Virus record (IMG/VR): IMGVR_UViG_2850796239_000005 | Location: 1 to 26,342 of that record | Reading direction: 5' to 3' (one strand) | Source: a virus | Lineage: Duplodnaviria > Heunggongvirae > Uroviricota > Caudoviricetes | Length of the DNA: 26,342 bases | Shown here: positions 19,733 through 26,342 of the stretch, one piece after another | Layout of the letters: every line of letters begins with the position of its first letter | How positions within the stretch are numbered: the stretch's first letter is position 1 | The notes under the pieces: generated by a model | The model's input: the letters and a program-made list of their open reading frames with translations, nothing else | Told to the model about the DNA's origin: nothing | Database searches by the model: none | Program-made: the position numbers and the translations under genes

Positions 19733-19951
19733 ATGAATATCGTTCCACTGAATTACAAAGGCGAACCTATCCGCTTCAATACTGATGGCTGGATTAATGC
19801 CACTGATATTGCAAAACGTTTCGGGAAGCGTCTGGATCACTGGTTGTCCAACGCTGAAACTCTCGAATACGTTAGAGCTCTGGATGAGGTTTATTCAGGT
19901 GAACCATCGAAAATTCTACATACCCGTGATTTTGAGGTGTACTGGCAATAG
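19733..19951 (+). pseudogene. KilA-N-domain protein, 3'-truncated by IS600 copy 1
   Basis: MNIVPLNYKGEPIRFNTDGWINATDIAKRFGKRLDHWL... fits the KilA-N pattern (from memory). Phage-derived sequence ends at 19932; the last 6 codons and stop are inside IS600. Confidence 0.5.
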
Positions 19952-19975
19952 CGGACACTACCATTTGTTCTTTTT

Positions 19976-20794
19976 TTAAGCAGCCATCTGATGATATTTT
20001 TCCCTGAAGGCTGCCGGGGAGATATTCCCCAGACGAGAGTGACGACGCTGACGATTGTAGAAAATCTCAATGTATTCCCGTATTACTGAGATGGCTTCAT
20101 CCCGGTTATTAAAACGATAGTGGCTCAGGCTCTCATTTTTCAGCGTTCCCCAGAAGCTTTCCATCGGAGCGTTGTCGTAACAGTTACCTTTACGCGACAT
20201 TGATGTTTTCAGACCAAACTGCTCCTGTATGACCCGGTAATCGTATGCGCAGTACTGTGAACCTCGATCAGAGTGGTGGATTAGCCCGGCAGGTGGGCGC
20301 TGGCTCCTGAGCGCCATAAACAGGGCTTTACCTGTCAGCTCTTTTGTCATGCGCTCTCCCATGGCGTAGCCGACAATTTCGCACGTATAAACATCTTTGA
20401 TGCCAGCGAGGTACAACCATCCCTCCTGTGTGGCAACATACGTCAGGTCCGCCACCCAGACCTGATTTGGTGCTGTAGGAGCGAACGTCTGGTTCAGCAG
20501 ATTTGGCGCAACTGGCAGATTGTGGTTCGGGTTCGTAGTCGCTCTGAACTTGCGTTTCTGCTTACAGCGTAGCCTTAGCTCCTTACGAAGACGTGCCAGT
20601 CGGTCACGACCAACGATGATGCCATTCTCTGCCAGCTCCGTCTGGAGCCGCCGGGTTCCATATGTTTCGCGAGTGCGGATATGTGCCACCTTAATCTCCA
20701 GTTTTAGCCGCTCATCACTTTGTTTTCTGTCTGAGGGTTCATGCTGTACCCAGTTGTAATAACCGCTCCTGGATACACCAAATACCTGACACAT
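19976..20794 (-). CDS. IS600-like OrfB (DDE transposase catalytic part), copy 1
   Basis: 272 aa, identical to the copy-2 OrfB except one residue (F vs S in QEQ(F/S)GLKTS). Carries the DDE region (...HHSDRGSQY...YDNAPMESFWG...). Confidence 0.85.
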   Translation of the reverse strand: MCQVFGVSRSGYYNWVQHEPSDRKQSDERLKLEIKVAHIRTRETYGTRRLQTELAENGIIVGRDRLARLRKELRLRCKQKRKFRATTNPNHNLPVAPNLLNQTFAPTAPNQVWVADLTYVATQEGWLYLAGIKDVYTCEIVGYAMGERMTKELTGKALFMALRSQRPPAGLIHHSDRGSQYCAYDYRVIQEQFGLKTSMSRKGNCYDNAPMESFWGTLKNESLSHYRFNNRDEAISVIREYIEIFYNRQRRHSRLGNISPAAFREKYHQMAA

Positions 20795-20829
20795 CGCTTC
20801 AATGGGAAATTGTTGTCGCCATTGTTCGA

Positions 20830-21132
20830 TTAACGCGTATTTTTCAGCGACTCCTGTGCAAAATACGCTGTTGCTTTTTTTAATATATCTCGCTCAAGGC
20901 GAGCTTCATTTAACGCCTTACGCAGTTGCAGAATTTCAGATTCCAGTTCAGCCACCGTGCGGGAACCAGGAGTACCGAGCCCTTTTCTGGCGGCGGTAAC
21001 CCATTGTCCTAAAGTGCCTTCAGGAAGGGATAATCGGGAAGCGCCTTCACTGATCGAAAGTTGATTTTCAAGAACCGTTCTGACAGCTTCGGCTTTGAAC
21101 TCTTTAGAGTAACGTTGGGTTTTTCTGCTCAT
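20830..21132 (-). CDS. IS600-like OrfA (HTH/leucine-zipper subunit), copy 1
   Basis: 100 aa MSRKTQRYSKEFKAEAVRTVLENQLSISEGASRLSLPEGTLGQWVTAARKG..., identical to copy-2 OrfA. Confidence 0.85.
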   Translation of the reverse strand: MSRKTQRYSKEFKAEAVRTVLENQLSISEGASRLSLPEGTLGQWVTAARKGLGTPGSRTVAELESEILQLRKALNEARLERDILKKATAYFAQESLKNTR

Positions 21133-21183
21133 TATTAGCTCCTTCTGATGCCATTCTATTTCAGGAAGGAGTGTCCGTTAAAC

Positions 21184-24523: not shown

Positions 24524-24538
24524 CAGAAGGAGCTAATA

Positions 24539-24841
24539 ATGAGCAGAAAAACCCAACGTTACTCTAAAGAGTTCAAAGCCGAAGCTGTCAGAACGGTTCT
24601 TGAAAATCAACTTTCGATCAGTGAAGGCGCTTCCCGATTATCCCTTCCTGAAGGCACTTTAGGACAATGGGTTACCGCCGCCAGAAAAGGGCTCGGTACT
24701 CCTGGTTCCCGCACGGTGGCTGAACTGGAATCTGAAATTCTGCAACTGCGTAAGGCGTTAAATGAAGCTCGCCTTGAGCGAGATATATTAAAAAAAGCAA
24801 CAGCGTATTTTGCACAGGAGTCGCTGAAAAATACGCGTTAA
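24539..24841 (+). CDS. IS600-like OrfA, copy 2
   Basis: Identical 100-aa translation to copy-1 OrfA. Confidence 0.85.
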   Translation: MSRKTQRYSKEFKAEAVRTVLENQLSISEGASRLSLPEGTLGQWVTAARKGLGTPGSRTVAELESEILQLRKALNEARLERDILKKATAYFAQESLKNTR

Positions 24842-24876
24842 TCGAACAATGGCGACAACAATTTCCCATTGAAGCG

Positions 24877-25695
24877 ATGTGTCAGGTATTTGGTGTATCC
24901 AGGAGCGGTTATTACAACTGGGTACAGCATGAACCCTCAGACAGAAAACAAAGTGATGAGCGGCTAAAACTGGAGATTAAGGTGGCACATATCCGCACTC
25001 GCGAAACATATGGAACCCGGCGGCTCCAGACGGAGCTGGCAGAGAATGGCATCATCGTTGGTCGTGACCGACTGGCACGTCTTCGTAAGGAGCTAAGGCT
25101 ACGCTGTAAGCAGAAACGCAAGTTCAGAGCGACTACGAACCCGAACCACAATCTGCCAGTTGCGCCAAATCTGCTGAACCAGACGTTCGCTCCTACAGCA
25201 CCAAATCAGGTCTGGGTGGCGGACCTGACGTATGTTGCCACACAGGAGGGATGGTTGTACCTCGCTGGCATCAAAGATGTTTATACGTGCGAAATTGTCG
25301 GCTACGCCATGGGAGAGCGCATGACAAAAGAGCTGACAGGTAAAGCCCTGTTTATGGCGCTCAGGAGCCAGCGCCCACCTGCCGGGCTAATCCACCACTC
25401 TGATCGAGGTTCACAGTACTGCGCATACGATTACCGGGTCATACAGGAGCAGTCTGGTCTGAAAACATCAATGTCGCGTAAAGGTAACTGTTACGACAAC
25501 GCTCCGATGGAAAGCTTCTGGGGAACGCTGAAAAATGAGAGCCTGAGCCACTATCGTTTTAATAACCGGGATGAAGCCATCTCAGTAATACGGGAATACA
25601 TTGAGATTTTCTACAATCGTCAGCGTCGTCACTCTCGTCTGGGGAATATCTCCCCGGCAGCCTTCAGGGAAAAATATCATCAGATGGCTGCTTAA
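24877..25695 (+). CDS. IS600-like OrfB transposase, copy 2
   Basis: 272 aa DDE transposase, one residue different from copy 1. Confidence 0.85.
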   Translation: MCQVFGVSRSGYYNWVQHEPSDRKQSDERLKLEIKVAHIRTRETYGTRRLQTELAENGIIVGRDRLARLRKELRLRCKQKRKFRATTNPNHNLPVAPNLLNQTFAPTAPNQVWVADLTYVATQEGWLYLAGIKDVYTCEIVGYAMGERMTKELTGKALFMALRSQRPPAGLIHHSDRGSQYCAYDYRVIQEQSGLKTSMSRKGNCYDNAPMESFWGTLKNESLSHYRFNNRDEAISVIREYIEIFYNRQRRHSRLGNISPAAFREKYHQMAA

Positions 25696-25706
25696 AAAAA
25701 GAACAA

Positions 25707-26342
25707 ATGGTAGTGTCCGCTATTGCCAGTACACCTCAATGCTTGGGCTTTTTATTCGCACATCGTGAGGAATGCACTGTGGAAATTAAAAAAATCATTA
25801 ATCCCCGTTATACCGAAAGTGGCGCAGTAGACTGTGACGTTTTTTTTGACGACAGGGACCAGGCAGTCCCCTACACAGCCACCGCTGATGATGTCGCTCC
25901 GACGGGTCAGCAAATCTGGCAGGAACTGCAAAGCGGCAAATGGGGTGAGATAGCCCCATTCACTGTGACACCAGAAATGCTGGAAGCGGCCAGAGAGGCC
26001 AGACGTCAGGGAATTGAAGCATGGCGCACAGAACAGGAGGCGAAGCCGTTCACGTTTGAATGGAACGGTCGTATCTGGGATGCTGGCCCCAACTCACTGG
26101 GCCGCCTTTATCCGGTGGTAATGGCTGCGAAATCCGACATTGTACGGGACGTGATGACGTGGGGTGATGCCGATAATCAGCAGGTGAAACTGTCGATGCC
26201 GGAACTGGAAGAACTGGCGGCAGCAATGGTGCAGGCTGTTGTTGAACGCAATGACGAGATTTATCGCCGTCAGCGTGAAATGAAAGAGGAGCTGAGCAGT
26301 CTGGATGATTTGGCTTCAATTCGGGCGTTTGACGTTGAGTAA
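25707..26342 (+). CDS. Phage late protein fragment (possibly tail or tail-fibre-assembly related), 5' end displaced by IS600 copy 2
   Basis: Phage-derived sequence starts at 25739; the first 10-11 codons of the track ORF are IS-encoded. Stop at the window end. Function is a guess from position; no confident family. Confidence 0.4.
   Translation: MVVSAIASTPQCLGFLFAHREECTVEIKKIINPRYTESGAVDCDVFFDDRDQAVPYTATADDVAPTGQQIWQELQSGKWGEIAPFTVTPEMLEAAREARRQGIEAWRTEQEAKPFTFEWNGRIWDAGPNSLGRLYPVVMAAKSDIVRDVMTWGDADNQQVKLSMPELEELAAAMVQAVVERNDEIYRRQREMKEELSSLDDLASIRAFDVE

Follow-up and report, generated by a model that had tools for sequence, protein, structure and literature searches.

The 26,342-nt stretch of DNA analysed here (IMG/VR record IMGVR_UViG_2850796239_000005; 'the window' hereafter) is almost one whole decayed prophage, which runs from a lambda-type integrase at the left end to the tail-fibre/DUF4376 module before ipaH, and which carries two inverted copies of the insertion sequence (IS) IS600 around an inverted block of late genes. 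Comparison with intact relatives makes it probable that IS600 insertions and recombination between IS600 copies deleted most late genes of this prophage and then flipped a remaining block of 3278 bp, comprising the end of the small terminase gene (terS), the large terminase gene (terL) and most of the portal gene. The anatomy of the structure, its four breakpoints, the collinearity that appears when the block is un-flipped, the missing target duplications and the sharing of the outer junctions with another strain are observed directly. IS-driven decay of prophages is of a known and well-understood kind, and this example from a Shigella-type genome has low novelty.

The window is part of CP026875.1 (assembly GCA_002950355.1), a closed 5.16-Mb chromosome of the Shigella/enteroinvasive Escherichia coli (EIEC) type, to which it is 100% identical over 16.6 kb. 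Open reading frames (ORFs) with NEL and LRR_TTSS domains, that is ipaH, are located directly downstream of the window in this chromosome.

Breakpoints and collinearity with intact prophages

The ipaHa prophage of EIEC strain RMDEC465 (NZ_CM177019.1, about 5,046,000–5,094,500; loci L003 and L011) served as intact comparator. Its lysis genes, Rha, terS, terL, portal, head, contractile tail and tail-fibre genes are followed by the gene annotated 'tail fiber N-terminal domain', by DUF4376 and by ipaHa, all on one strand, and the order in E. coli E308 is lysis, KilA-N, gp49, HNH, terS, terL and portal. BLAST alignments relate window positions 18231–19737 to L003 18732–20239 (98.5% identity), the reverse complement of positions 21197–24474 to L003 21585–24862 (99.63% identity), and positions 25739–26342 to L011 6942–7545 (97.0% identity). 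In RMDEC465 these three segments follow one another in the same order and on one strand, so that un-flipping the 3278-bp block restores the native order of lysis, KilA-N or Rha, terS, terL, portal, tail fibre, DUF4376 and ipaH. What is then missing amounts to 2,015 bp on the left in the E308 layout (from the rest of KilA-N to the middle of terS) and to 20,967 bp on the right in the RMDEC465 layout (the portal end, the head and tail genes and most tail-fibre genes); the latter gap, between the portal breakpoint and position 25739, bears out the claim of an earlier prediction made from the window alone (the original prediction) that head and tail genes are absent there.

Gene identities were assigned by Pfam and PHROGs searches of the ORFs of the window. 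They agree with the original prediction that the lysis genes read rightward while terL and the portal gene read leftward between the IS600 copies (Table 1), and the rightward lysis cassette (Pfam Phage_holin_2_1, Phage_lysozyme and Phage_lysis) shows the native direction of late transcription. The comparison with intact relatives that had been proposed as a check placed, by means of RMDEC465, E308 and other relatives, all four breakpoints, namely in KilA-N (junction J1), the portal gene (J2), terS (J3) and the tail-fibre gene (J4).

At J1, IS600 copy 1 indeed cuts a KilA-N gene, and the N-terminal part that is kept (Pfam KilA-N, E 1.8e-10) is 99.5–100% identical to the intact 522-nt KilA-N genes of 29 E. 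coli genomes. The intact genes read GTGATTCCGGG, with the breakpoint at GTGATT|CCGGG and [T/A]TTCCGGGTATG as the remainder past it. At J2, the portal ORF extends 13 nt into IS600 up to a stop at 21184, which yields a 511-aa fusion (Pfam E 5.3e-85); a relative reads GGATTT|CACCCAAC at this breakpoint, 19 nt have been removed, and the remainder of the portal gene past the breakpoint is TTTCACCCAACGC. At J3, copy 2 reduces terS to its last 44 codons, as had been predicted: the remnant aligns to the final 134 nt of terS in RMDEC465 and FDAARGOS_943, where the native sequence is GGGCGTC|ATGTTTC and the 5' part of terS is GGGCGTCATG. At J4, the tail-fibre gene end aligns from its first base to L011 6942–6971 and to L004 15001–15030; the native sequence is GGCGCA|ATGCTTGGGC, with GGCGCAATG on the tail-fibre side of this right-hand breakpoint. 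The last gene of the window matches Pfam DUF4376 and PHROG 1141.

The TerL protein occurs unchanged in 174 blocks of the public collection. Of the 10 places shown, one is the source; an intact terS precedes terL at each of the other nine, and a portal gene follows it at eight of these. The identity of the protein with copies in intact prophages indicates that the decay events are recent.

Two side observations concern the breakpoints themselves. The native KilA-N gene holds a perfect 9-bp inverted repeat, ACATACCCG-N6-CGGGTATGT (window 19921–19931; intact genes at loci L005 and L006), and the site at which IS600 entered is its 6-nt loop. Furthermore, an ATG at position 25707, within the right inverted repeat of copy 2, is in frame with the truncated DUF4376 gene and could restore a start codon (211-aa hybrid ORF, 25707–26342).

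Table 1. Features at and around the two IS600 copies, in window coordinates (IRL and IRR, left and right inverted repeat of IS600)
Feature	Position	Strand	Remarks
Lysis cassette	18273–19528	plus	holin 18273–18566, lysozyme 18591–19064, Rz 19049–19528
KilA-N 5' fragment	19733–19931 (ORF to 19951)	plus	199 of 522 nt kept, 66 codons and 1 nt; junction J1
Single T	19932		between KilA-N fragment and IS600 IRR; non-native, relatives have C
IS600 copy 1	19933–21196	minus	1264 bp; IRR left, IRL right; T at IS position 980 (window 20217)
Portal gene (DUF1073/Phage_portal_3)	21197–22719	minus	last 19 nt gone; junction J2
Large terminase gene terL	22719–24338	minus	intact, 539 aa; PHROG 2 (terminase large subunit), E 9e-32
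terS 3' remnant	24341–24474	minus	134 nt: 43 sense codons, stop, 2 nt; junction J3
IS600 copy 2	24475–25738	plus	1264 bp; C at IS position 980 (25454)
IS600 copy 2, parts	24539–24841; near 24790; 24877–25695	plus	OrfA; A7G slippery run; OrfB
'Prophage tail fiber N-terminal domain' gene, 3' end	25739–25768	plus	last 30 nt with stop; junction J4
DUF4376 tail-fibre-module gene	25739–26342	plus	first 20 nt gone; annotated 25779–26342 in source

The two IS600 copies

A repeat finder applied to the window returned one long inverted repeat with arms at 19932–21197 and 24474–25739, 1266 nt each and 3276 nt apart; the arms exceed IS600 by one base per side because the flanking bases match by chance (T...A). 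Junction reading and alignments of the element reproduced exactly the boundaries originally predicted for both copies. The copies exhibit a single mismatch in 1264 nt (99.9% identity): at IS position 980, read in IS orientation, copy 1 has T and copy 2 has C, which makes codon 193 of OrfB Phe and Ser, respectively. Each of these alleles is common in IS600 (C in 37 copies, T in 18). Alignment of the two copies, which had been suggested as a way to find a recombination crossover, offers this one difference only, in the outer (IRR-proximal) quarter of the element, and did not locate the crossover.

When compared with a reference set of 29 unique full-length IS600 copies, taken from records that include S. 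flexneri SFBU1023 and ECMA0423, both window copies are 99.1–99.9% identical to 27, the two outliers being at 95.9% and 96.7%; they are near-identical to the copies at loci L002 and L005 as well, and copies in relatives are annotated in RefSeq as 'IS3-like element IS600 family transposase', also with 'programmed frameshift'. The element ends in TGAGGT...ACCTCA and has imperfect terminal inverted repeats of the 5'-TG...CA-3' type, with TGAGGTAGCCTGAGTTTAACGGACACT as IRL and TGAGGTGTACTGGCAATAGCGGACACT as the reverse complement of IRR, which pair over about 6+8 nt only. Pfam assigns HTH_Tnp_1 to OrfA and HTH_21, rve, rve_3 and rve_2 to OrfB, and the two frames are predicted from the sequence to be joined by a -1 frameshift at the A-rich (A7G) site in their overlap. 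Length, ends, OrfA/OrfB and slippery run are as in IS600 elsewhere, whereas both window copies are devoid of the 3-bp direct repeat. The two copies are ordinary IS600, rearranged, and not a different element; IS600 belongs to the five IS that have expanded across all Shigella species (PMC7373316).

Exact IS600 sequence was also encountered in very short contigs assigned to the Gram-positive bacteria Streptococcus sanguinis (L032, 547 nt) and Streptomyces sp. (L036, 1380 nt), most likely as contamination with E. coli/Shigella DNA.

Target duplications and flanking bases

The original prediction held that neither copy is flanked by a direct-repeat target duplication, and the comparison of flanks confirms this: no direct repeat of 3–5 nt is present at either copy, with the block as it is or flipped back. 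The flanks now are TTT|IS|AAA for copy 1 and CAT|IS|ATG for copy 2, and un-flipping yields TTT|IS|ATG at both. IS600 is flanked by 3-bp direct repeats in FDAARGOS_943 (CAC; L002), in FDAARGOS_944 (CAT; L005) and at 11 of the 29 reference copies. The remaining 18 reference copies lack one, as expected if copies recombine often, and an absent target duplication is the commoner state for IS600 in such genomes and therewith unremarkable.

The two flanks of each copy match in inverted fashion, GATTT/AAATC at copy 1 and CAT/ATG at copy 2; read toward the IS ends, J1 and J2 both read GATTT, and J3 and J4 both read CAT. These short inverted flanks had been described in the original prediction and are present as written, except that the last T of the first one (19932) is foreign to KilA-N: alignments with intact genes end one base short of it (20 genomes listed of 29), and the T is present in all assemblies with J1, including a second strain (locus L009, see below) and locus L010. 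In the reference set, such a match between the flanks of a single copy extends over 2 nt at most, so that same-copy inverted flanks of at least 3 nt occur in 0 of 29 reference copies as opposed to 2 of 2 here. Taken over all flank pairs of the reference copies, the probability of an inverted match is 0.019 for at least 3 nt and 0.004 for at least 5 nt, which gives a joint chance of about 8e-5 for both inverted flanks from empirical frequencies, or of 1e-3 to 1e-4 when alternative junction pairings are allowed for. The short inverted flanks are real, without established meaning and predicted by no canonical pathway; they and the T at 19932 may be due to chance.

Two further candidate regularities were discarded. 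A strong target preference of IS600 (CAN beside IRL), as read from six junctions, is at odds with the very diverse triplets of the 29 reference copies, which exhibit only a mild excess of T beside the IS ends. The 9-mer TGCTTGGGC, found just outside the terS breakpoint and again at the start of the right flank, fits no recombination scheme and is treated as chance (about 0.004, by a rough count).

Junctions in other strains

The outer junctions are shared. J1 (the KilA-N fragment, the T and the IRR of IS600) is present in three assemblies, and a search of IMG/VR for it returned a contig of a second strain (GCA_000193915.2) only; J4 (the IRR of IS600 joined to ATGCTTGGGC) likewise occurs in this second strain. 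There, the DNA after copy 1 is a 1.6-kb segment that in other E. coli codes for MarR and SPFH proteins, and the DNA before copy 2 is the tail-fibre end, in inverted orientation, of another ipaH prophage. The T allele at IS position 980 is tied to J1 in both strains and, both alleles being common, this agrees with an independent origin of each outer half. The inner junctions J2 and J3 were found in no other sequence searched. When queries spanning J2, J3 and J4 were run against 5,426 complete E. coli genomes, none matched over its full length; an exact-protein look-up found the portal–IS600 fusion of J2 in CP026875.1 only, and J2 had no match in IMG/VR or in the JGI metagenomes.

On contig AERN01000093.1 (L093) of the second strain, an inverted, uninterrupted tail-fibre, DUF4376 and ipaH end is located left of the shared IS600/DUF4376 junction. 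The DUF4376 gene of this inverted end is 99.8% identical to that of the window, and two ipaH prophage ends are linked there by one IS600, as an inversion between prophages would give.

IS600 has also struck related DNA independently. It is inserted in the lysozyme gene of the same prophage family in FDAARGOS_943 and in the helicase gene of a different prophage sharing the KilA-N gene in FDAARGOS_944. In ECMA0423 (L033 2166–3445), the same tail-fibre 3' end carries an IS600 in opposite orientation, 15 nt upstream of the window's right-hand breakpoint, and another, inverted IS600 is found at a distance of 0.9 kb. The DNA beside DUF4376–ipaH has thus been struck by IS600 more than once.

Discussion

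Our comparison suggests the following history. IS600 would have inserted separately at four places of a dispensable prophage, in KilA-N, in terS, in the portal gene and in the tail-fibre gene at its 3' end; copies in this prophage, or one here and one in a sister ipaH prophage, would then have recombined, with the loss of about 2 kb and about 21 kb and with one hybrid IS600 left at each deletion junction; and homologous recombination between the inverted, 99.9%-identical copies would have flipped the 3278-bp remnant. We infer both the order of these events and that the deletions were caused by IS600 recombination rather than by the transposase. The latter is favoured by the finding that the outer junctions are joined to different DNA in the second strain, which speaks for recombination between IS600 copies over transposase-made 'adjacent deletions'. 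Long, near-identical inverted repeats are present at both block ends, as is characteristic of recombinational inversion. Inverted repeats give rise to inversions and direct repeats to deletions (PMC8072062), and in Shigella chromosomes and in pINV inversions and deletions have been described as products of homologous recombination between IS copies (PMC8072062; PMC5629016). The window resembles such rearrangements in that inverted copies bracket a flip, hybrid copies reside at deletions and partners depend on the strain; what sets it apart is its small size, with a 3.3-kb flip in one prophage.

Inversion between two inserted copies should exchange their target duplications reciprocally (X|IS|rcY ... 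rcX|IS|Y). With TTT as X and AAA as rcY, AAA is then expected left of copy 2, where CAT is seen. Since this reciprocal exchange is absent, extra events, that is deletions, are required; moreover, the un-flipped IS600 copies still sit at deletion junctions without a direct repeat. One homologous-recombination inversion is hence necessary but insufficient, and no fewer than two other IS-associated events have to be added to it. The original prediction had likewise argued that one inversion does not explain the junctions and that several IS-mediated steps, an inversion plus deletions, are implied; our data support both statements, with TTT|IS|ATG at either deletion junction after un-flipping and with one flip plus two IS-associated deletions. 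The exchanged-duplication pattern would no longer be recoverable because further deletions followed.

Several points weigh against this history. Four IS600 insertions within about 25 kb are needed if all junctions are simple insertions, and the reciprocal or intermediate junctions were not found, neither the right-hand junction of the portal insertion (ACCTCA+TTTCACCC...) in IMG/VR or the JGI metagenomes nor the left-hand junction of the terS insertion in IMG/VR. The DNA regarded as deleted could, in addition, have been moved elsewhere in the source chromosome, and recombination between IS600 copies predicts neither the short inverted flanks nor the non-native T at 19932.

An alternative that we consider unlikely is that the transposase made the structure: one IS600, for example that in the portal gene, would have transposed 'in trans' into terS, thereby duplicating and inverting, and adjacent deletions would have proceeded from the outward IRR ends. 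Such a route needs fewer insertions (one or two), derives both inner junctions from one event and accounts for both outer junctions being at IRR ends. Both the 'trans' pathway and what it produces have been described for IS26 and Tn4401 (PMC4471558), and the end product is alike in that an inverted segment is bracketed by inverted copies without abutting direct repeats. However, the diagnostic pair of target duplications, one per copy and mutually inverted (PMC4471558), is absent from the window, where neither the right flanks (AAA/ATG) nor the left flanks (TTT/CAT) are reverse complementary. A duplicative event also gives identical copies, whereas those of the window differ at IS position 980, a pre-existing common polymorphism; on these two grounds we reject a single duplicative 'trans' inversion. 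One difference in 1264 nt suggests separate origins of the copies, although it could also reflect later mutation or gene conversion. Both outer junctions are, moreover, found in a strain with other inner partners. IS3-family elements move by copy-out/paste-in via a circle, and cointegrate-type inversions or adjacent deletions are not natural products of this mode. Insertion of IS600–block–IS600 as one composite transposon would likewise give two inverted IS copies that bracket DNA with like ends (IRR) outward, but it has a negligible probability and was rejected: no direct repeat surrounds the unit, which has TTT on its left and ATG on its right, and the outer flanks are adjacent in no relative, where the native position of the block separates them and the distance exceeds 25 kb.

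The odd flanks, on which recombination between IS600 copies is silent, would find an explanation in a fold-back of the tandem-inversion-duplication type, which we regard as quite improbable. Snap-back replication at paired IS600 ends would have generated block|IS|inverted-block palindromes, and later trimming at microhomologies (AATC at KilA-N, CAATG at the tail-fibre end) would have left the inverted flanks and the T as the last bases of the arms. It is the only scheme considered that predicts both the same-copy inverted flanks and the non-native T (the portal's T in GGATT-T), and the occurrence of such flanks of at least 3 nt at both window copies and at none of the 29 reference copies is in its favour. 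Its palindromic intermediate is, however, seen in no relative; the hairpin loop would span 1.2 kb, held by the short pairing of the IS600 terminal repeats noted above; a dead prophage offers no selection for amplification; J1 together with its T exists also in a strain where copy 1 does not adjoin portal DNA; and two independent trimming deletions are needed, with chance at the frequencies given above as a possible source of the flanks. In the Salmonella lac system, as studied by the Roth laboratory, tandem inversion duplications are reportedly remodelled at microhomologies. These share with the window an inverted central copy and junctions with short inverted repeats, whereas neither triplication nor palindromic arms are present here, so that a process of this kind offers a possible history of the micro-flanks only. 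The chance that 1.26-kb inverted repeats confused the assembly, so that the block really has its native orientation or flip-flops in the culture between the two, appears smaller still. J2, J3 and the whole arrangement are known from a single assembly, and inverted repeats of 99.9% identity are expected to recombine. On the other hand, the source is a closed chromosome and its homopolymer-indel pattern suggests long reads, which would be able to span the 5.8-kb structure: relative to the second-strain contig (L009), the window has four single-base homopolymer (C/G) deletions and one substitution over 11.4 kb. The junctions, deletions and missing duplications are in any event the same in either orientation, and only the 'inverted' state of the block is at stake.

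The surrounding prophage

The differences from the second-strain contig just mentioned are located at 12146, 12365, 13040 and 14420 (and at 14025) and resemble indel errors of long reads that were left uncorrected. A cI-like S24 repressor, which has 239 aa in the second strain, is split by the one at 13040, and the one at 14420 shortens the helicase ORF. The ipaH gene beside the remnant in CP026875.1 is called as two ORFs, NEL (345 aa) and LRR_TTSS (187 aa; L008 16789–18551 / L092 10743–12505), and may be a pseudogene or reflect a homopolymer error.

By the collinear homology of its lysis, packaging and tail-fibre/DUF4376 modules, the window belongs with the ipaH-carrying lambdoid prophages that have contractile-tail genes, of which the ipaHa prophage of RMDEC465 is the type. 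The early region has no DNA-level homology to the RMDEC465 prophage, and the prophage is therefore mosaic. The integrase is neighboured by a tandem pair of paralogues, 260 aa each, that have an ORF6N (antirepressor-like) domain (1184–1966 and 2166–2948; the repeats are 76–81% identical), and the immunity region contains a HicA/HicB toxin-antitoxin pair (11466–12055). Within 3849–6300, an IS2 remnant (3849–5001, with a 301-aa OrfB) abuts another IS3-family element (4994–6300) that overlaps an 'ALIL pseudoknot' annotation in relatives; S. flexneri SFBU1023 and ECMA0423 contain many copies of both.

At its right flank the window is like the ipaHa and ipaHe prophages of RMDEC465, with the tail-fibre/DUF4376 module followed by ipaH, and it differs from them in that the structural genes are gone while the cargo end beside IS600 is kept. 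RMDEC465 harbours a second copy of the same head–tail module elsewhere in its genome (also represented by locus L001), as well as the ipaHe prophage. Effector genes are placed after the tail-fibre genes in ipaH-type prophages or 'ipaH islands' of Shigella/EIEC (PMC3530523, PMC8072062). Genes of the ipaH type are located among prophage genes and IS, and the mechanism of ipaH integration has been called uncertain (PMC8072062), a question on which the apparently complete ipaHa prophage of RMDEC465 bears.

Implications

The prophage is unable to package DNA or to build particles and has retained the ipaH effector cargo at its right end; the IS600-bracketed structure has no function of its own. For annotation this means that terL and the portal gene are relics and that the prophage is defective, and the case is useful for reading structural variants in assemblies of Shigella. 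If anything here indicates a new mechanism, it is the inverted micro-flanks together with the extra T, on weak evidence; fold-back, if true, would constitute a replication-based route to IS inversions and deletions that is either independent of the transposase or due to its aberrant action. Otherwise, what the window provides is a fully mapped case of IS600 reducing an ipaH prophage to its effector cargo, which matters little beyond bookkeeping, and in which individual IS600 copies act as recombination hubs whose partners differ between strains.

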